Part shown: positions 5,369 through 29,791 of the stretch, in pieces
How the letters are laid out: each line of letters begins with the position of its first letter
Numbering within the stretch: the stretch's first letter is position 1
Virus record (IMG/VR): IMGVR_UViG_2579779009_000005
Direction: 5' to 3' (one strand)
DNA: 45,234 bases
Origin: a virus
Taxonomy: Duplodnaviria > Heunggongvirae > Uroviricota > Caudoviricetes
Program-made: the position numbers and the translations under genes
The notes under the pieces: model-generated
The model's input: the letters and a program-made list of their open reading frames with translations, nothing else
Told to the model about the DNA's origin: nothing
Databases searched by the model: none

Positions 5369-5865
5369 CAGGGAACCCTCGGAAGACTTTCCGGATCGCG
5401 CCCATCCGGATAACCCGTAACCACGATATCCAGCCACGAATCCCACGGCGGCGGCAGCTCAACAATGATGTCGTCGAACTCATCGTCGGCGTTATACAGA
5501 TGGTTGGCAATTACGGTTCCCGTCCAGGTTACCACCCCGCCGTCGATACTGGTTTGCACTGGCATCTGCGTGAAGTGAAGCTCCTGCAATTGCAGGCCAC
5601 TGCCGCCAAGATTGATATTCATCCGGAACCAGTTCAGGCCCCGGTTGAGATAGTTCGGGCTGCGTAGCCACTGCTGGAAAGCGCGTTCCTGCGCCAGAGT
5701 GAAGAGCCACGTCAGTGACCAGGTCACTTTCAGGTCGTCGGTTTGATTCTCGAAGATTGCCGGGCCGACCACTGGCTGATCGGTCTGGAACCCGGTATCG
5801 AGAGTCATGTTTTTGCTGGCCTTTTGCGCCAACGGCAACCAGTCGGGATAGTCGATAATTGGCAT
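5368..5865 (-). CDS. Minor tail protein
   Basis: 165-aa ORF immediately downstream of the tape measure gene, translationally coupled to it. Confidence 0.5.
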   Translation of the reverse strand: MPIIDYPDWLPLAQKASKNMTLDTGFQTDQPVVGPAIFENQTDDLKVTWSLTWLFTLAQERAFQQWLRSPNYLNRGLNWFRMNINLGGSGLQLQELHFTQMPVQTSIDGGVVTWTGTVIANHLYNADDEFDDIIVELPPPWDSWLDIVVTGYPDGRDPESLPRVP

Positions 5866-8795
5866 CAGCCCTGCCCCCTTGGCGTACGTTTAACGTTCAT
5901 GTTGCTGGTAATGGCGTTGCTTATTGGCCCGCCGTTATTCAAGTCTGCAACGACGACATCAACAGTCAGCCCACCATTTCCGTCTGTTCCAGCCTGAGCA
6001 TCTACAGAGGATGACGTGTAGTTCTGAATGTTGATAACAACCCCACAACCGCCCGCCCCTTGCATATCCTTGTTGCTGATCACCTTGCCATTGTCGCCGG
6101 GTATCATGTACTGCTTACCGGTGCTGGCCTGATAAATCTCAGGCATCCCGCCCTCACCTACCTGATACATTCCGCCCGCCGATACCGGGCCGCCGTTCTT
6201 ACGCTTACCGGCCAGCGCCATGACTCCCGCCATAGCCCCGACACCAATTGCCACTGCCGCGCCCCATGATGCGATCGACGACATGAGCGCCGCCGGTGTC
6301 CATGCTGCCGTGGTCGTTGCCGCCGCCGCTGTACTGGCTGCGGTCTGCGTGGTAATACCGGCAACCTGTGCTGCTGTAGTGGCAGTGATTGCGGCCTGCT
6401 GAGTTGTGGCCCCCATAATCGCGGACTTAGCCCAGTCGACGCCCATCTGCACAAAGGAGTTAATCAGCTGGTTAACTACTGAGTTAGCGAGTGAACGAAC
6501 AGCCTCCTCACCACTTTGAGTGCCAGTGATGATCCCCGCAAAGGCACTCGATGCGTTGTTGCCAAGGGCATCAAGCGACGCCGCAAGCATCTGGTTGGCT
6601 GCGCTTTGCTGTGAGAACAAAGTCCACTGGGCAGCAAGACGCTGCTGCTCGTATTCGGTATCGGCGGCGTTACGCAGTGCAAGCGCGTTCTCGTGAGTAA
6701 TCAGACCTTCCTGCTCATAAGCCTGAATCAGAGCAAGTTTTCGGGCATTCTCGTTTGCCAGTTGCTGAACAGGATCAACTCCGCCAGCGGCATCTTGCTG
6801 CGGTGTAACCACCTGCTGCGCGCGAATTTTGGCAAGGTTGGCCTGGTGAGTAGCTTCGAGCCTTTCAGAGGTCTCGTTGTACTGCTCCTGGCTGATTTTC
6901 TTGGCTGACAGGGCGGTATTCAGCGCTTCAACATCCTGCCTGTAGCTGGTGTTTTCACGCGCTTCCGGCAATAGCTTCTCTGCTGCGGCCTGCGCTTTAA
7001 TGGCGTTGGCCGTATCCCATTTTGCCGCCGCGTACTGCCCCGCCAGCGCGAGCTGTTCTTTTGTGGCTCCTTTTCCGAGAGACTGCTGCGCATTAAGGAT
7101 CGCCTGCTCGCGACTCAGCCTATTTGTTGAGTCAGCGGCAAGCTCCGATTGCTGCTTGAGATTAGCCAGCTTCTGAGCGATAGACTCCGCCTGAGACGCT
7201 CCTTTCTTCTGTTCGGATTTGAGGACCTTCTGTGCTTCTGTATTTTTGTAAGTGGCAGCAGCGTCATCCTCCATCTGCTTGGCATGCGGATCATCCTTCG
7301 CAAATCCAGCATCTTCGGCAGCGTATTGAGCCTGCAACCGCGCGCGGGCCTCCCCCTGGAGCTTAGACAGTGCCAGATTGCGTTCTGACTGCTTGATCAG
7401 GTTCTTCTGCCCGGCGGTAAGGTTATCTGTTTCCTGCTTCAGAGCAGCAACATTACCTTTAGCAATGACGGCTTCACGCGATAACTCAACAAGTTTCCCT
7501 ACGAATGCCGTGAGTGCGGTCTGCCCTTTTTCGGTTGAGCTCTGAGTGTTCTGCAGTTCAGTAGCAAGTCGCTGCAGGGCTTCCGGAGATGGATTTTTTG
7601 CAATATCGGAAAGCTGCTTGCTGAACTCGAAAGCTTTTTGCTCGGATATCCCGAACTTGTCGGCTACAGCACCAACAGTATTGCCAATGCTGTTTGCAGT
7701 CGCCTGGAATGCCTGCCCGGCACCGTATGCCTGCTTCATCGCCTCGGAATAGTTATCCGTGGTGATTTCCAGAGTAGTCAGACGATCGTTAAAGCCATCG
7801 ACTGACGCATAGCCTCCGGAAAATGCTGAAAGCGCCTTGTCCCCGAAGGAAAGTAGCGAGCTCGAAGCATCGCTGATCGCTTTAGGTATCTTATTGATAG
7901 CCTCGTTGTATTCCAGCAGCGCCTGGTTACGCATCAGTGTTGCTACTTCGGTATTCGTTTTCGCTAGCAATGCGTACTTATCAGACAGTGCGGCCACGCC
8001 ATTTTGGGAAATGGTAATGACCTTATCCATCGCCTCGGCTGCGTCTTTCAGCGCATCCATCGCGTTCTTGCCGCCATTAAGAGAAGTGATGAGCACACCG
8101 GCCAGAACAGAGCTCAGAGCGATAACAGAACCAATTACCGCACCACCCGGCCCGAATGCACCGGCAAGTTGAGATCCTTGCTGTGCAAACGCTACCAGCG
8201 CGGACTGGCCACCCTGAACCTGAATGATAAAGTCCTGAACCTGGTACCCGGCCTGTTGCATGCTGTTTTTCCAGGCCCCGGTTCCTTTCGCTCCGGTTTC
8301 CACACCTGTTTTCATGTCATACAGTCGACCGGTCAGCTCGCCGATCTTCTGCTTCTCTTCATCGGTCGCTTTTGAGCCGGCACGCAACTGTGCCGCTAGG
8401 ACTGCTGCGCTACGCGCGCCATTCTCCTGCGCCTCGTCCAGCACTGCGAGTTGGTTACCAAGCGCCTCGATGATGGATTCGGCGCGATTGAACTCACTGT
8501 TAGCGCCACCGGTACCGCTGCGGGCCTCTTCCATTACGCGGGCGATCCCGCTCACATTGGTGTTAAGTTTGCGGAGTTGGTTATCCATCGAGTTGGCATA
8601 ACCAGCCAGTTCAGTAAACGCGGATCCGGTTTGAGATGCGCTCTGATCGAGGTTATCCATTCCCTTGCCGGACTGCTGGGCCGCAGCATCCAGTTTATCC
8701 AGAGCATCAATGGCCTGTTTCCCGCCCTGCAACAGCGGCTCAACGTCGGCGCTGATTTCATAAACGATGCTACCGGCGTTCTTCTCACCTGCCAT
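5865..8795 (-). CDS. Tail tape measure protein
   Basis: 976 aa, Ala/Gln/Gly-rich helical protein with a C-terminal hydrophobic/Gly-rich segment. Start revised to MAGEKN (ATG at 8795, RBS ggaga) because the upstream in-frame ATG lies inside a terminator hairpin. Confidence 0.8.
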   Translation of the reverse strand: MAGEKNAGSIVYEISADVEPLLQGGKQAIDALDKLDAAAQQSGKGMDNLDQSASQTGSAFTELAGYANSMDNQLRKLNTNVSGIARVMEEARSGTGGANSEFNRAESIIEALGNQLAVLDEAQENGARSAAVLAAQLRAGSKATDEEKQKIGELTGRLYDMKTGVETGAKGTGAWKNSMQQAGYQVQDFIIQVQGGQSALVAFAQQGSQLAGAFGPGGAVIGSVIALSSVLAGVLITSLNGGKNAMDALKDAAEAMDKVITISQNGVAALSDKYALLAKTNTEVATLMRNQALLEYNEAINKIPKAISDASSSLLSFGDKALSAFSGGYASVDGFNDRLTTLEITTDNYSEAMKQAYGAGQAFQATANSIGNTVGAVADKFGISEQKAFEFSKQLSDIAKNPSPEALQRLATELQNTQSSTEKGQTALTAFVGKLVELSREAVIAKGNVAALKQETDNLTAGQKNLIKQSERNLALSKLQGEARARLQAQYAAEDAGFAKDDPHAKQMEDDAAATYKNTEAQKVLKSEQKKGASQAESIAQKLANLKQQSELAADSTNRLSREQAILNAQQSLGKGATKEQLALAGQYAAAKWDTANAIKAQAAAEKLLPEARENTSYRQDVEALNTALSAKKISQEQYNETSERLEATHQANLAKIRAQQVVTPQQDAAGGVDPVQQLANENARKLALIQAYEQEGLITHENALALRNAADTEYEQQRLAAQWTLFSQQSAANQMLAASLDALGNNASSAFAGIITGTQSGEEAVRSLANSVVNQLINSFVQMGVDWAKSAIMGATTQQAAITATTAAQVAGITTQTAASTAAAATTTAAWTPAALMSSIASWGAAVAIGVGAMAGVMALAGKRKNGGPVSAGGMYQVGEGGMPEIYQASTGKQYMIPGDNGKVISNKDMQGAGGCGVVINIQNYTSSSVDAQAGTDGNGGLTVDVVVADLNNGGPISNAITSNMNVKRTPRGQG

Positions 8796-8810
8796 GACAT
8801 TCTCCGGGCA

Positions 8811-8833
8811 TAAAAAAACCCGCCGCAGCGGGT
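8811..8833 (-). terminator. Intrinsic terminator after the two-gene moron
   Basis: Stem acccgc-ugcg-gcgggu followed by seven U on the minus transcript, between the stop at 8850 and the tape measure start. Confidence 0.6.
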
Positions 8834-8849
8834 TCGTCATTTAAATGAT

Positions 8850-9206
8850 TTAGGCTTCTCTCTTACCGAATGCATATCCCAAAGCCAGTGTTAGTATGGG
8901 CGTGAATATGGACCATACATCTTTTAAAGCGCTTACGATGTCAAACTTATCTGGTGAGTCAAGATCAAATGAAAAATGAAAAAAAACAAGCAGTAAACAA
9001 ACGCTGAAAATCCCACCTAAGTAGAAGCAATATTTCAAAGTTGTCCAGATAAATGAATCCCTTGCATGCTCACCAGTTCCAATCTCATTCGCAATTTTCC
9101 CCGCAACACTAACACCAGTTAGTCCACCTTGAGGTACTGAAGGTGTTGTAATTTCATTGTTTTGGGTTTGTAGTTTTGGCTCAGATGCAATGAAAGATTC
9201 GGTCAT
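8850..9206 (-). CDS. Small membrane protein (moron gene 2)
   Basis: 118 aa with two predicted TM helices (LKYCFYLGGIFSVCLLLVFFHF and SIFTPILTLALGYAFG). AT-rich. Start overlaps the stop of the upstream ORF. Confidence 0.5.
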   Translation of the reverse strand: MTESFIASEPKLQTQNNEITTPSVPQGGLTGVSVAGKIANEIGTGEHARDSFIWTTLKYCFYLGGIFSVCLLLVFFHFSFDLDSPDKFDIVSALKDVWSIFTPILTLALGYAFGKREA

Positions 9207-9586
9207 TACTCCCCCTCATAAAAAGAGAAGTTGACAATAACTGAAATCTGGTCCGTTCCGATTTCTCTAATGTTGGAATGCCATGCCATGAATAATTTTT
9301 TCCCATTAGATTTCTTGCCAATTTCGGCCGGAATAACAAGACCTACAGCTTCATTCATAATAGGGACAATTACCCTGTGGACGAAAACAACCTCTCCATT
9401 TTTAACGAATGCATCAACCCCCTGCTTATTCGACTCACTTTCAGGCAGAATTTTTGTCGTAATTAATATAGTTAATCCATCGTAAACCAATTTTAAAGGT
9501 TCAGAAGGAACTAATGGATTAATAATGCTATGAAAGCTACCTGACTGTAATAGAGTTTTTCCATCTGCGCTGGCTTTTACTAACAT
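9206..9586 (-). CDS. Hypothetical soluble protein (moron gene 1)
   Basis: 126-aa ORF in an AT-rich insertion between the tail chaperone and tape measure genes. RBS gaagg upstream. Confidence 0.5.
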   Translation of the reverse strand: MLVKASADGKTLLQSGSFHSIINPLVPSEPLKLVYDGLTILITTKILPESESNKQGVDAFVKNGEVVFVHRVIVPIMNEAVGLVIPAEIGKKSNGKKLFMAWHSNIREIGTDQISVIVNFSFYEGE

Positions 9587-14670: not shown

Positions 14671-16056
14671 TTACTCCGGCATTTCGCTGAAAGATTCGTT
14701 GTTATTGACCTGGCGGAATGCACCATTCAGGCCAGTAGAGGTCTGGCACTGTGCGTACAGGCCATCAAGTGCCGCACCATCGAGGGCATTCACAGCAAGG
14801 TCATCCAGACCAAATTTCGCTTTGACCGCCGAGCGCTTTTCACCCTTCTCTTTGTCGGCGTTAACCGCCAAACCGCTTTCAATGGTGTTAAGCTTTTCTG
14901 CGAACGGGGCAAACCAGGCCGGTGCCTGTTCGCTGTTATTGGCCCGCTCTTTTTTCTTGGGTTTGCCGGTTTCCGGGTCGATTTCTTCATCGCCTTTTGT
15001 CTTGGCGGTGGCTTCATCTGCCTTCATCTGGTTGTATGCGTCCATCAGCTCGGCGTCGGACTTGCCTTCAGTCGGCTTACCAGCGGCTTGCAGCGCATTG
15101 ATAATCAGTTCTTTCATCGGATCGTTCTCTCCGTTGGTTTTAATCTCGTACTCAGTGGGTTTGCGCACGACTTCTACAGGTTCGCCGACGAACACGGCCT
15201 TGCCGTCATCATCGATGAGGTACTTCTGCTTCAGGTATTTGGTGTCATCGCGGTAGATGAAGCTGTCCGGCCACACCGTTTCAGGCCAAAGCCACTTATC
15301 TTCTGTGTCACCCTCGCGCAGCTTGTCGCTGATAGCGCGGGAGATGTCGTCGAAAGAGAAGTTGGAGGCATTGGTGAAGAAGAATTTGGTTTTGTTGAGC
15401 AAGCCGTCGCGGGTGCAGTCGATGCCATCAGCAAGGCGGGCAACTTCTATCTGCTGCTCATCACCCTCAGCGTTAACGAAGATGCCCACGCCCTCCTCAG
15501 GAGTGCCAGCGCCCGGCTCATCAAGCAGCACTGCAACATGGTCAAACATCATGTTGGTGGCGATTTCGTTATACTTCTTGCCCTTCGACTCGCCGTTGGC
15601 GGCGATACCGGAATACAGCAGGCCAGTGGAGATGTGGATCGGGTCGGAGTTAGTACCGGCCAGCATCTCATCCAGACGGTTAATCAGGCGCTTGCCCTTG
15701 TCACTGGACTCTGCGTACTGGCGGTTAACGTACATGTCGCCTGTCACCTTGCCGTCATTGTGGCTCACGTTTTGCAGCCAGGCCCCGACGTGGTACTCAT
15801 TCACCGCCCGGACATCTCGCGCCGACACATGCTTGCCGTCCACTTTCGGGTGGCCCAGCGGCATCGGGTTACGCTCGAGCGTGTTGTAGGCCTTTTCGAT
15901 TTCTGCTGCCGGGTACAACTTCCGGTTCATCACGATATCGTCCACGACAGGCGTGATGCCGCGAACCACGATATGTGGCTTGCCGTCGATGGTTTCAGTG
16001 GTGATGTTTGATGCGGAGTTGACGACGGTCAGCACGTTAACGCGGTTGCGTTTCAT
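14671..16056 (-). CDS. Prohead protease / scaffold fusion protein
   Basis: 461 aa with a globular N-terminal part and a charged K/E-rich C-terminal scaffold-like region. Sits upstream of the decoration and capsid genes. Confidence 0.6.
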   Translation of the reverse strand: MKRNRVNVLTVVNSASNITTETIDGKPHIVVRGITPVVDDIVMNRKLYPAAEIEKAYNTLERNPMPLGHPKVDGKHVSARDVRAVNEYHVGAWLQNVSHNDGKVTGDMYVNRQYAESSDKGKRLINRLDEMLAGTNSDPIHISTGLLYSGIAANGESKGKKYNEIATNMMFDHVAVLLDEPGAGTPEEGVGIFVNAEGDEQQIEVARLADGIDCTRDGLLNKTKFFFTNASNFSFDDISRAISDKLREGDTEDKWLWPETVWPDSFIYRDDTKYLKQKYLIDDDGKAVFVGEPVEVVRKPTEYEIKTNGENDPMKELIINALQAAGKPTEGKSDAELMDAYNQMKADEATAKTKGDEEIDPETGKPKKKERANNSEQAPAWFAPFAEKLNTIESGLAVNADKEKGEKRSAVKAKFGLDDLAVNALDGAALDGLYAQCQTSTGLNGAFRQVNNNESFSEMPE

Positions 16057-16118: not shown

Positions 16119-16973
16119 TTAACTTCTTACATACTGACATAGCACGTCAAATACATAATCGATATAATTCTTACCTTCTGACTCGTCAAATTTAGGAGCG
16201 GTACCTTTTTTATTGTAATAGAAAAGTGAAAGTAGTGGAAAAGCAATTGCTACACTTTTTTCATCATCACACTGTGTACTTTTAAACATGCTTTCAATTC
16301 TAGCAGTCGCATGTGGGTGCGAACGTTCCCCGCCATTATCAGTACTTTCTTGGTCTAGAATTATTACTAATGCTAACAGTGACCCACTAAATCTTTTGAT
16401 GAAATGGTTCGGAAGTGTATTTTCATCAAAAATGAAATTTGTTGCAAAACTGTCTGCATCAACTTCCTCTTGACGACACTGAGAATACTCACCATCCGTA
16501 TGCTCTAATTTGATATGCCCTATCTCATGTAGCATGATCCATGCCATGGCACATAGAAACAACTCATCACCAACATCAGTGCTTTCACCATCAAAGTAAC
16601 TCAGATGCAATAAAAAGTCTTTATCATTTAACGATGAGGATATATTAGCCTTGCATAATTCAAGTAACTTCCTTTCACGATCAATCTCATCTTCAGTAAT
16701 TCCAACCCCTTTGGAATTAGCTATCTTATATTTATTATAAAGTGACCATGACAGACAAGAAACCACCCAAACGTAATAAAGCGATGACAACGGTAAATAA
16801 ATTTCTTTTTTTGATGTACTTACAGAAAAGGAAAAGGAACGTGAATCTTCAAAGCACACATCGAATTTTGGATGTACATCACCCCTTGATGAATTTATGT
16901 TATAAACACATTTTTTTAAACTTGTCTCTAATCGCGACAAGGGAAAGTCTATAGGCATGCTTCTGAGTGTCAT
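16119..16973 (-). CDS. HExxH zinc metallopeptidase, Lit-like (peptidase U49?) moron
   Basis: HEIGH motif with a downstream EH, near residue 150 of ~284 aa. Strongly AT-rich. Own terminator. Inserted between the head morphogenesis and protease genes. Tabulated start is TTG; the ATG at 16973 is preferred. Confidence 0.45.
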   Translation of the reverse strand: MTLRSMPIDFPLSRLETSLKKCVYNINSSRGDVHPKFDVCFEDSRSFSFSVSTSKKEIYLPLSSLYYVWVVSCLSWSLYNKYKIANSKGVGITEDEIDRERKLLELCKANISSSLNDKDFLLHLSYFDGESTDVGDELFLCAMAWIMLHEIGHIKLEHTDGEYSQCRQEEVDADSFATNFIFDENTLPNHFIKRFSGSLLALVIILDQESTDNGGERSHPHATARIESMFKSTQCDDEKSVAIAFPLLSLFYYNKKGTAPKFDESEGKNYIDYVFDVLCQYVRS

Positions 16974-17024
16974 TATTTTTTCTCTTAAAAACAATTATAA
17001 TTAGACATTTACCAGAAACATATA

Positions 17025-18032
17025 TCATACAGCCACTGATTGTGACCAATCTTTTCTTTCTTTCGCCAACTTATCCGCCAGTCCTTCGTTGAAGATTCTG
17101 CCGTCGTCGTTGAGCAGTACCGGTATCTGGCTGCAATAGCAGTGGTATTTGTTACCATCTACTGCATACCAGTCGCGCACCTCTTGCACGGTTCTGACCT
17201 TTCCATGCCAGAATGCGTGCGTTGTCCTGGTGGTAGGCTTTAGCGCAGAAAGATGGAGAAGACCTGTATTTAGCCCCAGCCTCTCGGATGCCCAGTCCGT
17301 TTCATTCCATTGAGCTTCACGCAGCGCGCCGACCTGCTCTGTCTGAGCGATGTTCTTTGCCTTCGACATAGACACATCGAGGCGCTTGCTGATGACACTG
17401 GCCGTCTCGCGAGGATTTACCCCTCGCGCTACCGCATCGGTGATGATGTTGGTCAGGTCGCCACGGGCTGTGTCGCTGATGACCTTCCAGTCACTGAACG
17501 TTGTCAGCCTGGCCGCCGCCACCTGATTAAGGTGACCGGGACTACTTAAAAGCTGCTGTAGCGTCGTCTGGCTGGCGTACACCTGAGACTGCTGCGATAG
17601 GTTGTTAAAAGCCTCCAGCGTGCCTCGCTGCGCTTCTGCGACGACGTAATCCATCGCCCACAGGTTTTGCTCGCCACCCTCCAGCAGGTAATCGTTAAGA
17701 ATCGACTGCACTGCTTCGAGGAGGCCAGCCAGTTCCTGCGCCGACATGTCGTAAATAAACTTGCCAGCGTTGACCTGGTAGAGCCGCATGTCCTCGCCTT
17801 GGTCGTGGCAGAGGAAGTGCCAGTTATGGCTGTTTACCTCTCGCTCTCGTCCGGTCAGGCGCTGGTCGAACAGTGCTTTCAGTGCGCGCTTGATGCCGAG
17901 ATACCGATCTTCGATATCCCGGAACATCGCGGCAACCTGCTTTGCCGATCGGGTCGGGTCAACCTTGCTGCGCGGAACTATCGGCAGGCCCACCTTTGCC
18001 GTCTGTTCTGGTGTCATCGGCCAGTGGATCAT
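17025..18032 (-). CDS. Head morphogenesis protein (SPP1 gp7 / Mu F-like)
   Basis: 335-aa ORF immediately downstream of the portal gene, in the typical position of this family. Overlaps the portal 3' end by ~70 nt, so the start is uncertain. Confidence 0.55.
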   Translation of the reverse strand: MIHWPMTPEQTAKVGLPIVPRSKVDPTRSAKQVAAMFRDIEDRYLGIKRALKALFDQRLTGREREVNSHNWHFLCHDQGEDMRLYQVNAGKFIYDMSAQELAGLLEAVQSILNDYLLEGGEQNLWAMDYVVAEAQRGTLEAFNNLSQQSQVYASQTTLQQLLSSPGHLNQVAAARLTTFSDWKVISDTARGDLTNIITDAVARGVNPRETASVISKRLDVSMSKAKNIAQTEQVGALREAQWNETDWASERLGLNTGLLHLSALKPTTRTTHAFWHGKVRTVQEVRDWYAVDGNKYHCYCSQIPVLLNDDGRIFNEGLADKLAKERKDWSQSVAV

Positions 18033-21979: not shown

Positions 21980-22318
21980 ATGGGTATTGAAGAGAATTTA
22001 CTCGAGACACTGTTAAAGAATGATGTTTTCCATGAAGAGGATGGAAAAGTATCAGGCATTGCCAAGCGTGCTATCGATAAAGGATATGCAAATTTATCAC
22101 CGGCACAAAAGCGAGTATTACAACCGTTTATGAGTCATGGTTGTGAGGGTTATACCGATCCTGGTGGACATCACAACGGTTGCGGAAAAGTTCTGGAAGG
22201 TGCAGAACTTGATGAAGCTTATGAACACACATGGGAGCATGGCGGCTTACTCTGCGAGGACTGTCGCGAACAAAGTGGTTATGACGATTACCGTCGTGAG
22301 AAATTTATGAAAGACTAA
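21980..22318 (+). CDS. Cys/His-rich hypothetical protein (opposite-strand moron)
   Basis: Strong RBS aaggagg. Motifs HGCEGY...HHNGCG...CEDC suggest a zinc-binding fold. AT-rich upstream region. Own terminator. Confidence 0.5.
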   Translation: MGIEENLLETLLKNDVFHEEDGKVSGIAKRAIDKGYANLSPAQKRVLQPFMSHGCEGYTDPGGHHNGCGKVLEGAELDEAYEHTWEHGGLLCEDCREQSGYDDYRREKFMKD

Positions 22319-27318: not shown

Positions 27319-27969
27319 TCAAACGGCGGTATCCATGCTTTGAAGAATGGCGTGTAATGAATTTGCGGTGGAATTCTGCAGTTTTGTATCGGTTGCGGGG
27401 ATGTGTTCAAAACTATCGATATAAAATCTTACACCGTCCTGTCTCACCCAATAGACTAGCCAGTCTCCAGAAATTACATCATTACCCTTAAACGGTTTCC
27501 AAGATAGCTCAGTAGCAATACGAGAAATTTGCTCTTTTGCATTTTCTTCTCCCATCTGTTCAATAAGATCCTGGAATCTTATGATAAGTTCTTCAAACGA
27601 AGCATCTTTAGCACTAACTCCATTTTGCTCCAAAAACATCTGAATAGCATTGCGATTGCCCCGGCCTTGTAAAGCCGGCTCGGATGGATTTTTCTCAGGC
27701 GCTTCTCCTTTTTGCCTGTACGCATTGAAAGCTCGAGTGAAATTATCCTCTGAAACATGTATATGATGAAATCCGGCCAACGCACCCTTTAATTCACGCT
27801 CTTGATGACGCATTGCTAAAGTTGATGGGGCAACCTTCATTCCCTCAAGAAGCCGAATGGACTCCAACACATTTCGGGCGAAAAATCCCCTTCCATTTAA
27901 TGCGTCTTCGATTATTTTCTGAGATAGATGACTCGAGACTCTATCCTTAAAATGTTCATCAATAATCAC
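27319..27969 (-). CDS. Hypothetical protein, AT-rich (nin-region cargo)
   Basis: 216 aa. Clearly more AT-rich than its flanks. Last gene of a three-gene coupled set. No family recognised. Confidence 0.5.
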
Positions 27970-28214
27970 TTCCCTTCCTCCTGTTTCAGGTAAACCGGAT
28001 CGCTAACTTTCGGTAAAGTTATCGACTTCTCGCGATAAAACTTCAGGCGCTCAAGGAAGTAATCACGCAAATGCTCTGGCTGCTCGCGCATCACCACCTC
28101 AGCGATAAGCGGCATATTCAGGCGCTCTTTGTACGCCACTCCGGAGGCAGCCAGGTCAACGTTAACCTTATCGCGATCTTCCTGCGGCTTTGCTGCAATG
28201 TTCCAGTCAGACAT
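27966..28214 (-). CDS. Hypothetical protein (82 aa)
   Basis: Start/stop overlaps with both neighbours. Confidence 0.45.
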
Positions 28215-28558: not shown

Positions 28559-28941
28559 AGTCCGTTTATCATAGAATAAAAGGCCCCTAGGGGCCTTGAT
28601 TTATATCTATGGTAACTCTCGTCAACTTGTTCGTCACTTCACCTGCTGCGGAGCTGCTGCGAGCATCGTACGATAAGCAGATGCATGGTAAATGCCATGT
28701 GACACCCAGGCGGCATTAAGCATATCTGGCGTTGGCTCCTTCTGAACCATCACCCAACCATCCGGAATCACCGGAGAGTTGCTATCTTGCGTGGCACCCT
28801 GAAGCATGGCGGCGCGAGCGGTATGAGCAAAGTATTCTTATAGTCGCGGCGATGACGTGCCATGACCACCCAATTTATCTGGACAAATCACTGGAGCTAT
28901 AGGATACATAATTGCATTTTAGCTAAAGGCGTTAACTGATT

Positions 28942-29379
28942 ATGTGGCTTACTGTTTTTACTACAATTATCACTGGTGTGACCGTCTACATCATAGGTCA
29001 AATAATAACCAAATGCGCATTGGAAACGTACATCTCGTTCAAGGAGCATCTGGGAAGAATTTCGTCACTCTTACTTCGCGAGCAAAGTAAAATAATGAAT
29101 TTTAAGCCAAATAGCGAATTAATACATGAGCTAAAGGCGTCATCAGGTCTTTTAATTGCAAAATCGAAAGCAATCCCATTCTATAATTTTTTCTCAAAAA
29201 TAGGCCTTACTCCAGTTTACAGCGATGTGATTGAAGCGTCACACCAACTAAATTTAATAGCTTCCATCTTAGAAGGCGGCAACAATTCATATTCCAGTAA
29301 TCCATCTCCTTCAGGCCAATCCATCTACTCTTCTTTGAAAATCATTGGAGAAAAGCTTGATATAATTGTTTCGTACTAA
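28942..29379 (+). CDS. Membrane-anchored hypothetical protein (opposite-strand moron)
   Basis: 145 aa with an N-terminal TM helix (LTVFTTIITGVTVYIIGQII). Very AT-rich. Opposite orientation to the surrounding operon. Confidence 0.5.
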   Translation: MWLTVFTTIITGVTVYIIGQIITKCALETYISFKEHLGRISSLLLREQSKIMNFKPNSELIHELKASSGLLIAKSKAIPFYNFFSKIGLTPVYSDVIEASHQLNLIASILEGGNNSYSSNPSPSGQSIYSSLKIIGEKLDIIVSY

Positions 29380-29531
29380 TTTATTGCACCCGTACTGTTT
29401 TCTGTGCCCGTCAGCACGGGCTTCTCATGATCATAAAGTGCAGCGATTCCGCACGCGTTACAAGATATCCAATTGAGGTTATCGTCGTCATAATCAAATT
29501 CAGCCTTTCCATCGCAGTATGGGCAAGGCAT
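29376..29531 (-). CDS. Small zinc-ribbon protein (Lar-like?), not in ORF track
   Basis: 51-aa ORF MPCPYCDGKAEF...CNACG with two CxxC pairs. ATG overlaps the stop of the upstream ORF. Confidence 0.4.
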   Translation of the reverse strand: MPCPYCDGKAEFDYDDDNLNWISCNACGIAALYDHEKPVLTGTENSTGAIN

Positions 29532-29791
29532 CAGGTCGTTTTCACATCCACTGCTGGCGATAAAAGAGCGTTACTCAGCAGTACATAACCCGGTATCCAG
29601 TTACCAAGCTCAGCGACATGTGTAACGGTGACTTTGGTGAATTCACCGGTAAAGGCTTCTTCGTTCGGGTCCCACTCGCACAGATCGAGATTGTCGCCTG
29701 CCTGGTAATCTCGGTCATTCCATCTGAGCTCTGCACGCTTCTGTCCTGCGCGAACGGCTGAATAGTACTCAGGCCAAATCTTCAGATGGTG
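29531..29791 (-). pseudogene. ASCH/PUA-like (DUF3850-like) ORF lacking a canonical start codon
   Basis: 86-codon open frame HHLKIWPEYYSAVRAGQKRAELRWNDRDYQAGDNLDLCEWD... The codon preceding it is TAA and there is no in-frame ATG/GTG/TTG at the N-terminus. Confidence 0.35.

Follow-up and report, generated by a model that had tools for sequence, protein, structure and literature searches.

Why does a strongly AT-rich gene lie on the plus strand of an otherwise minus-strand early operon, and what could its product do for the element that carries it? This question is raised by a 45,234-nucleotide stretch of DNA from a tailed virus (Caudoviricetes; IMG/VR virus record IMGVR_UViG_2579779009_000005), the whole of which is called the window here. 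An open reading frame (ORF) for a protein of 145 amino acids occupies positions 28942-29379 of the window. A preliminary description, made by a model from the letters alone, had pointed to superinfection exclusion (Sie) or abortive infection (Abi) as frequent functions of such single-pass membrane proteins in prophage cargo positions. The results described below make it probable that the ORF is an independently transcribed accessory gene of mobile elements, encoding a bitopic inner-membrane protein with a functionally important membrane helix. What the protein does is less certain. The function that we favour is that of a defence or exclusion factor protecting the carrier cell or element from incoming phages or other mobile DNA, to which we would assign a probability of about 0.45.

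The ORF and its cassette

The ORF starts with ATG and is among the program-listed ORFs of the window. It has a GC content of 0.365, compared to 0.525 for the whole window and 0.46-0.60 for the flanking genes, which places it among the lowest 1.2% of 438-nt windows in the 45 kb. All neighbours from NinG (25916) to an O-like gene (32440) are encoded on the minus strand, and those that can be identified are NinG, a NinB/Orf-family protein, a DNA polymerase III theta subunit (HolE-like), a Ren-like protein, a DnaB-type helicase and an O-like initiator. The prophage is lambdoid, and the ORF runs antisense to its early-right operon at a place between the replication and the nin/Q genes. Its stop codon (TAA, 29377-29379) overlaps the stop of a minus-strand ORF of 51 residues with a CxxC...CxxC pattern (29376-29378), which gives a convergent overlap of 4 nt. 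The preliminary description was accurate in all these respects: the plus-strand ORF of 145 residues, its AT-richness relative to the neighbours, its transcription against a minus-strand operon and its convergent 4-nt overlap with a small zinc-ribbon gene.

The ORF is a genuine gene and not a chance reading frame, because it is conserved over its full length, is under purifying selection and gives a confident structure model. Full-length homologues with 41-99% identity were found in E. coli, Citrobacter, Klebsiella and Kosakonia (24 clusters at 90% identity in a word-indexed search), and their alignment retains the N-terminal hydrophobic segment along with the remainder of the protein. Pairwise ratios of nonsynonymous to synonymous substitution rates (dN/dS) were 0.11-0.26 where synonymous sites were unsaturated. 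The AlphaFold2 model had a mean predicted local distance difference test score (pLDDT) of 94.3. The gene is rare, as 6 of 5,426 complete E. coli genomes carry it. E. coli M10 (NZ_CP010200) harbours an identical prophage, for which the annotation in RefSeq by the prokaryotic genome annotation pipeline (PGAP) places the start at Met52 (WP_123282430.1, 94 residues; window 29095-29379 (+), locus L001 9496-9780). This shortened version has no transmembrane (TM) helix. Fewer genes are called over this stretch in some further E. coli genomes that share the sequence. Judged from the family alignment, which includes the N-terminal TM segment, the form of 145 residues is the true gene and the RefSeq start is wrong.

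The boundaries of the mobile unit became apparent from a blastn comparison with a Citrobacter homologue (locus L009) that is embedded in a differently composed nin region. Window positions 28871-29379 align to positions 5930-6438 of this locus with 81% identity over 509 bp. The homology begins 71 bp before the ATG and ends exactly at the stop codon. Such a block of homology in different flanks indicates that the mobile unit is a cassette consisting of a leader and the ORF. The elements of the cassette and its immediate downstream region are as follows.

28871-29379, plus strand: whole mobile cassette (moron), with 71 bp of promoter/leader and the 438-bp ORF; from the blastn block and the GC content of 0.365 against 0.52-0.54 in the flanks.
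28900-28905, plus strand: -10-like hexamer TAGGAT (TAnnAT), 42 nt upstream of the ATG, of a putative sigma-70 promoter; from comparison of homologue leaders.
28925-28929, plus strand: Shine-Dalgarno-like AAAGG, 12 nt before the ATG; from the sequence, with purine-rich GG blocks at the same position in homologue leaders.
28942-29379, plus strand: coding sequence, 145 residues, PHROG 7512; from the PHROG match (E 8.8e-37), homologues, dN/dS and AlphaFold.
29406-29421, plus strand: GC-rich hairpin GCCCGT-cagc-ACGGGC and, after it, TTCTCAT; located 27 nt beyond the stop codon, within the zinc-ribbon ORF of the opposite strand; from the sequence and RNA folding.

Of 25 distinct sequences upstream of homologues, 24 have a TAnnAT hexamer that starts in the interval from -46 to -32 and lies 36-42 nt before the start codon, and sequences of plasmid copies with about 47% protein identity are among them. 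Shuffled controls gave 3.9 +/- 1.8 occurrences with a maximum of 10, although the upstream regions are related sequences and the comparison with shuffles does not translate into a formal probability. Since the rest of the leader has diverged almost completely, the conserved hexamer is a credible -10 element of a private promoter. A LexA box in the promoter was considered and rejected: the window has CTG-N10-TGG, and in the palindrome CTGTnCAGTAGACAG of the plasmid copies the spacing is 7 nt and not 8 nt. This palindrome, CTGT(A/C)CAGTAGACAG or CTGT-N7-ACAG with core CTGTn-N5-nACAG, lies just upstream of TAGGAT in two plasmid homologues (L054, around 5860-5880, and L055, around 5870-5890). It looks like an operator and resembles a LexA box except for its 7-nt spacer; the window leader does not contain it.

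At the other end, the hairpin at 29406-29421 might end the cassette transcript as a weak intrinsic terminator. It has a poor T-tract, is not conserved in homologues and was not called on the plus strand by a terminator scan. It also lies beyond the 509-bp block, so any use of it would mean that the cassette relies on a flanking sequence. A second hairpin is found upstream of the cassette, at 28580-28597. This is a perfect GC-rich hairpin on both strands (AAGGCCCCTAGGGGCCTT) with T-runs on either side, and it scores as a bidirectional intrinsic terminator. It is located inside the early-right operon between a phrog_14068 gene and an ORF of 57 residues, at a place in the nin region like that of tR2.

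Morons, as defined by Juhala and Hendrix, are independently expressed inserts in phage operons that have their own promoter and a deviant base composition (PMC3594210). The cassette resembles this definition in its base composition, its distribution and its putative promoter. Its base composition deviates (0.365 against 0.525), and the same contrast exists at 12 homologous loci, where homologues have a GC content of 0.35-0.42 and their flanks 0.49-0.56. It is present in some relatives and absent from others, with sharp boundaries (a 509-bp block, varying flanks, 6/5,426 genomes). The promoter is identified by comparison alone (TAnnAT in 24/25). Because deviant composition, sharp boundaries, patchy presence and a private promoter fit the published definition, the sequence data assign the segment 28871-29379 to the morons, at the replication/nin junction, where cargo is usually found in lambdoid prophages. 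The cargo position that had been proposed at the outset is thereby strengthened, as it also is by the occurrence of homologues on other mobile elements.

A single membrane helix and a helical bundle

The predicted parts of the protein are encoded as follows.

28945-29013, plus strand: TM helix, codons 2-24, with the face Thr8-Gly12-(Val13)-Tyr/Phe16-Gly/Ser19-Gln20-Lys24 and predicted N-out/C-in topology; from hydropathy, charge bias and conservation.
29014-29376, plus strand: predicted cytoplasmic up-down four-helix bundle, codons 25-145, with helices 25-46, 58-77, 93-112 and 124-139; from AlphaFold2 and alignments.
29278-29310, plus strand: variable Ser/Asn/Pro loop, codons 113-123, between helices 3 and 4; lowest conservation (0.54 bits), pLDDT 75-84.

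Residues 2-24, approximately, form a hydrophobic stretch with a Kyte-Doolittle mean over 19 residues of 1.7, and no comparable stretch exists elsewhere in the protein. The N-terminal TM helix, followed by a soluble domain as in the preliminary description, is thus recovered as the sole candidate membrane anchor. The orientation of this anchor can be predicted from the charge distribution in 130 family representatives. A median of only 4 residues precedes the TM segment, with a mean number of Lys and Arg of 0.25, whereas the 15 residues that follow it contain 2.22. The positive-inside rule for an N-out/C-in arrangement is obeyed by 95% of the representatives, and a second hydrophobic segment occurs in only 4%. 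These features predict a single N-out/C-in TM helix with a cytoplasmic helical bundle and almost nothing in the periplasm.

Membrane anchors with a passive role usually show little conservation. In this family, no segment is better conserved than the TM helix, which has 2.52 bits per position compared to 1.87 for the whole protein. The degree of conservation varies periodically along the helix (p = 0.01 against permutations), and 67 out of 68 members in a diverse sample have Gln20. Small and polar stripes on TM helices, with Gln among the residues, are known to drive helix-helix packing in the bilayer. In view of this established knowledge on membrane-helix association, the near-invariant Gln together with the small/polar stripe of Thr8, Gly12, Gly/Ser19 and Gln20 indicates that the helix probably engages in specific packing with another helix in the membrane.

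The AlphaFold2 model obtained with the 68-sequence alignment is all-helical, with a predicted template modelling score (pTM) of 0.83. A long helix (residues 2-46) comprises the TM segment and the first helix of the bundle without a break, and helices 58-77, 93-112 and 124-139 complete the bundle. The loop of residues 113-123 is the sole low-confidence part of the model; its pLDDT was below 50 with a shallow alignment. Conserved motifs in the bundle are E28-P29 (Thr29 in the window allele), L45, QxKIxN (48-53), IPxY (78-81), LP (90-91), LNxI (103-106), L139 and the C-terminal Tyr145. The near-invariant Pro29, Leu45, Tyr81, Pro91, Asn104, Leu139 and C-terminal Tyr/Phe look structural, and no catalytic signature is apparent in the family alignments. 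The soluble part had been described as rich in Ser, Asn and Ile. This is correct for Ser (17.5%) and Ile (12.5%), the latter being equalled by Leu (12.5%), while Asn accounts for only 5.8%.

Three other identities for a small membrane protein of this kind were rejected. A lipoprotein or secreted protein does not agree with the median of 4 residues and mean of 0.25 Lys and Arg before the TM segment, with Lys24 at position -1, or with the lack of conservation of Cys25, which is mostly Leu, Phe or Ile in relatives. A spanin or holin was rejected on the N-out/C-in topology, on the antisense position in the early region and on the location elsewhere in the prophage of a lysis cassette with a holin-like protein, a lysozyme and an Rz-type 'lysis protein'. 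Inner-membrane spanins (i-spanins) have N-in/C-out topology, an embedded or adjacent outer-membrane partner (o-spanin) and a position in the late lysis cassette. A type I toxin, Hok- or DinQ-like, would have fewer than about 60 residues and be controlled by an antisense RNA, and the size of 145 residues and the conserved folded cytoplasmic domain argue against it.

Family size, carriers and neighbours

The only catalogued family that contains the window protein is PHROG 7512, which has no annotated function. The match is full-length (residues 3-145 against profile positions 3-139 of 141), and all 68 sampled diverse relatives match the same family. The PHROG entry is phage-based. The family found here is larger and also includes plasmids and chromosomal islands, with hosts from Proteobacteria to Firmicutes. 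Exhaustive searching of 1.84 billion representatives with a profile gave at least 1,150 clusters (50% identity) at E <= 1e-3 and 320 at E <= 1e-10, and nearly all of the 1,150 representatives have a length of 135-160 residues and are matched over their full length. The word-indexed search had detected only 24 enterobacterial clusters, much fewer than the exhaustive search, and with a broad alignment it gained few distant members.

A homology and structure search had been suggested as a check of the initial proposal. It led to the unannotated PHROG family and returned neither a match to any Sie or Abi protein nor an informative fold; the searches made detected no homology or fold link to known proteins of these two classes. 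A sequence-profile search against the PDB gave chance-level hits only (Mediator subunit 9 and RsgI, E >= 0.01). By sequence, the window protein is not a member of any catalogued defence family.

Members closest to the window protein form a subfamily that was found in 34 IMG/VR contigs. Its genes always occupy the nin region of lambdoid prophages in antisense orientation, next to neighbours that vary; the orientation refers to gene calls at annotated loci and not to the IMG/VR contigs. Among 50,697 phage genomes searched by megablast and tblastn, the latter also with the D6 homologue as query, the only match was phage D6, a P1-like plasmid prophage in which the gene lies between humD and the phd-doc addiction module. 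By tblastn, copies with about 47% identity occur on 342 plasmid records, of which 261 are typed as conjugative, and IncF and IncX plasmids are among the carriers. In seven plasmid and phage-plasmid contexts that were inspected, including D6, the surroundings contain RelE/ParE pairs, ccdAB and toxins of the RES-domain and DinQ-like kinds, as well as genes for HEPN and SLATT proteins and for an 'Abi family protein'. On plasmid pSTY1 the family gene adjoins the SLATT gene.

Species-representative genomes contained no copy when searched with the close-family alignment (A1), and a sub-alignment (A3) revealed distant members in Psychrobacter, Pseudoalteromonas, Marinobacter, Desulfosarcina, a KSB1 metagenome-assembled genome and the Firmicute Filobacillus. 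At these chromosomal loci (L056-L074) the gene is more AT-rich than its surroundings in all 16 cases checked, whatever the GC content of the host (0.28 against 0.51 and 0.31 against 0.49, for instance). Recent transfer, xenogeneic silencing or a constraint on composition might explain this. Some chromosomal copies directly follow a Tiamat TmtA-like and DrmD-like helicase pair, a Tmn-like NTPase, or a protein with a TIR-like or RelA/SpoT domain. Among a further 73 chromosomal neighbours, metabolic genes are interspersed with those for transposases, an integrase, a dGTPase, restriction enzymes of types IIG and IV, PbeA and PDC-S02.

A conserved partner gene was rejected, as the zinc-ribbon, theta and 85-residue neighbours are each specific to certain contexts. 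In the window, the nearest neighbour is the following.

29376-29531, minus strand: convergent zinc-ribbon ORF of 51 residues, context outside the cassette; from a match to Pfam Lar_restr_allev at 26.8 bits (cutoff 28.6), hypothetical in E. coli M10.

This ORF may be a small anti-restriction (Lar-like) gene. Its pairing with the family gene is not conserved, because homologues have different downstream neighbours. Next to it is a DUF3850/ASCH-domain ORF (29531-29785 (-)), and both are located downstream of the Ren-like gene. The theta homologue of the window is at 27966-28214 (-) (HolE/P1 Hot-like, Pfam E 3e-33). In many Klebsiella and Citrobacter prophages (L006-L010), theta stands next to the family gene in head-to-head arrangement, and a hot homologue is near the family gene in D6 (L052 3247-3393); the linkage is one of position. 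In the window theta is not adjacent, since a terminator and two genes intervene. On IncF and IncX1 plasmids, a convergent gene for 85 residues lies about 95 nt downstream of the family gene (L054 6441-6698 (-) and L079 5441-5698 (-), mutually 96% identical). It is unrelated to theta and absent in phage contexts, and the pair appears to be a plasmid-specific two-gene block.

Possible functions of the membrane protein

The spread of the family over phages, phage-plasmids, conjugative plasmids and islands, together with the frequent toxin-antitoxin, Abi and restriction neighbours, suggests a role in conflicts between genetic elements. Such a role is also favoured because the cargo site is equivalent to that of HepS (PMC13043305) and because the same prophage carries a gene of the Lit family. 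In a lysogen, where pR is repressed, nothing would transcribe against the cassette and its own promoter could express the gene. The product would have a few periplasmic residues and one TM helix that continues unbroken into the cytoplasmic four-helix bundle. It would work via association within the membrane, either with itself or with a membrane protein of the host or the invader. The bundle could then serve as a sensing or partner-binding module, recognizing a cue derived from the invader or a membrane-associated component of its entry. Assembly via the TM face might lead to collapse of membrane integrity, which would be abortive infection, or to a block of DNA translocation at the cytoplasmic side of the inner membrane. 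The more specific proposal that PHROG 7512 is an unrecognized, widespread single-gene defence or exclusion family, in which a cytoplasmic sensor anchored by one TM helix acts via its Gln/Gly face, is put forward only tentatively.

Small-membrane-protein morons are a kind of gene that is already well known. The new findings are how large this family really is and how wide its host range, that plasmids carry it, that its promoter is conserved, that the TM face looks functional and that the start codon has been mis-annotated. A precedent in terms of genetic organization is gp15 of phage HK97, a YebO-related protein that is encoded by a moron, expressed from the prophage and inserted in the inner membrane, where it causes superinfection exclusion (PMC3594210). 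Like gp15, the window protein is encoded by a single small gene with its own (here putative) promoter and deviant GC content in an operon of a lambdoid phage. There is, however, no sequence relationship between the two, no Pfam or PADLOC match, and the PHROG families are different. Furthermore, gp15 is located in the tail operon and co-oriented with it, whereas the window gene is antisense in the nin region and encodes a large conserved cytoplasmic bundle. SieA of P22 (162-164 residues, three types) is a prophage moron product of the inner membrane that blocks DNA injection and has three predicted TM segments (PMC10883804). The window protein is of similar size (145 residues), is also encoded by a moron and is predicted to reside in the inner membrane, but it has one TM segment instead of three and no homology to SieA was detected, so it does not qualify as a SieA-type protein.

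The position of the gene is shared with HepS of Gifsy-1, a single-gene HEPN Abi system at the cargo site between the replication genes and the late regulator of a lambdoid prophage, which is also found outside prophages (PMC13043305). Both are lone, small, all-helical proteins encoded at equivalent sites without a partner gene. HepS differs in being soluble, with a catalytic Rx4-6H motif, while the window protein has a TM anchor. A HEPN nuclease was rejected as an identity for the latter, since an Rx4-6H motif is not conserved: the string occurs in 21 of 68 members at scattered positions. No HepS-like chain in the PDB matched the window protein in sequence or fold. The likeness to membrane-disrupting Abi effectors, such as RexB of lambda, the TM effectors of Thoeris and of cyclic-oligonucleotide-based anti-phage signalling systems (CBASS), and SLATT-type proteins, lies in the concept of a small membrane-embedded module that, once triggered, would associate in the bilayer and make membrane integrity collapse; the family studied here has a conserved polar face on its TM helix. 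The known effectors possess two to four TM segments and separate sensor or signal genes, in contrast to the single TM helix, single gene and missing PADLOC match of the window protein.

Several observations weigh against a defence or exclusion function, or against parts of the argument that leads to it. No Pfam or NCBIfam model matches the window protein or any of the 68 diverse relatives. Against PADLOC-DB v2 the window protein has no match at E <= 1, and the relatives gave two isolated matches at chance level. The structure comparison returned no informative neighbour, and literature searches found no mention of the PHROG 7512 identifier or of five RefSeq/GenBank accessions and no published phenotype. 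At the level of the cassette, the -35 element is weak or unclear, as TGGACA (28880-28885) is separated from the -10 hexamer by merely 14 nt. A generic promoter scan of the window did not call the TAGGAT site, and no terminator is conserved among the homologues. Codon 29 (29026-29028) encodes Thr in the window allele and its closest relatives and Pro in 66 of 68 members, so this copy could be functionally altered, either as a variant or with a mild defect. Some chromosomal copies follow housekeeping genes (HrpA, a sulfate symporter, an esterase), and the association with conflict genes comes from about 25 contexts that were tallied without statistics. Finally, the predicted cytoplasmic bundle with almost nothing in the periplasm argues against Sie by blocking periplasmic conduits, as proposed for P22 SieA (PMC10883804), to which such a topology is poorly suited.

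In view of the above, other functions have to be considered. The protein could be a lysogenic conversion or host-physiology factor, for example a membrane adaptor for a transporter, for an envelope-stress pathway or for bacteriocin immunity, which would give the carrier a fitness benefit. The moron anatomy and the lone gene without a partner would fit equally well, and the functions of morons are host-directed and very diverse (PMC3594210). Four-helix bundles are typical protein-binding adaptors, some chromosomal copies are surrounded by housekeeping genes, and one IncF copy is located about 2.4 kb from a microcin J25 cluster. However, a conflict system would better explain why toxin-antitoxin, Abi and restriction genes are found nearby time and again on plasmids and islands, and the occurrence in very different bacteria makes a single specific host target unlikely. 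We consider this function unlikely, although it is the strongest of the alternatives.

A membrane toxin for post-segregational killing is improbable. In such a scenario the polar TM face would produce a membrane lesion that stabilizes the element, under control of an unrecognized antitoxin or RNA. The highly conserved TM segment with Gln20, the almost exclusive occurrence on mobile or variable DNA and the proximity to phd-doc, RelE/ParE, ccdAB and DinQ-like toxins on plasmids and phage-plasmids would agree with addiction. Yet a protein of 145 residues with a well-folded conserved cytoplasmic domain is unlike type I toxins. No conserved neighbour could act as the antitoxin, because neighbours differ everywhere and the 85-residue plasmid gene is not general, and stable lone copies beside housekeeping genes argue against a protein that is toxic by itself.

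There is an equally small chance that the protein is an accessory of the phage or plasmid life cycle, either a membrane tether for replication or partition complexes or a tuner of lysis timing. Its position between replication and nin/Q genes, often head-to-head with a theta (HolE/Hot-like) gene, and near rep and par genes on plasmids could be explained in this way. The antisense orientation relative to the lytic-phase operon is difficult to reconcile with it, since convergent transcription would oppose expression exactly when it is needed. The gene has its own (putative) promoter and is rare and dispensable among related prophages. Moreover, the lysis cassette of the prophage is already complete, chromosomal copies exist without phage or plasmid context, and theta is not adjacent in the window. 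Very improbable is that the antisense transcription itself is functional and the protein secondary, with a conserved promoter that faces the pR operon upstream of ninB-Q, and a convergent overlapping 3' end without a strong terminator, damping read-through into Q and thereby delaying or stabilizing the lysis-lysogeny decision, because the protein is under strong purifying selection (dN/dS 0.11-0.26) with a fold conserved across phyla, and the gene also occurs on plasmids and chromosomes without an opposing operon, so that interference could be no more than a by-product in lambdoid hosts.

Other cargo candidates are present in the same prophage. The most AT-rich stretch of the window (16119-16994 (-), GC about 0.32-0.36) contains an ORF of 291 residues that matches Pfam Peptidase_U49, the Lit protease family (E 5e-16, 59 bits against 23.9). 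It has the HEIGH metalloprotease motif and is co-oriented between the head-morphogenesis ORFs 14671-16056 and 17025-18032. It is probably an Abi moron of the Lit type, inserted in the late operon. An ORF of 216 residues (27319-27969 (-), GC 0.42) adjoins the nin genes and is hypothetical in E. coli M10. It has no significant Pfam, PHROG or PADLOC match and is a second uncharacterized cargo candidate in the nin area. Two ORFs of 118 and 126 residues (8850-9586 (-), GC 0.38, no Pfam match) are located between an ORF of 991 residues, the size of a tape measure protein (5865-8840), and upstream tail genes; they could be foreign tail chaperones, or cargo at the position of the HK97 gp15 moron. An opposite-strand ORF of 112 residues (21980-22318 (+)) between putative metallopeptidase/terminase genes and the lysis region, without Pfam match and hypothetical in M10 (L001 2381-2719), may be a further moron.

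Irrespective of its function, a large and unnamed family for which neither Pfam nor NCBIfam has a model is defined here. The start at Met52 in RefSeq/PGAP, or the omission of the gene, means that automated searches based on those calls miss the membrane anchoring. If the gene has no function in conflicts, the cassette would still be a clean, well-delimited minimal moron at the replication/nin cargo site. If PHROG 7512 is indeed a defence or exclusion family, it would be among the smallest self-contained immune modules, missed by both defence catalogues and genome annotation. A compact module of 145 residues, shared by prophages, phage-plasmids and conjugative plasmids, would then join the immunity catalogue, and it would be easily tested and engineered.

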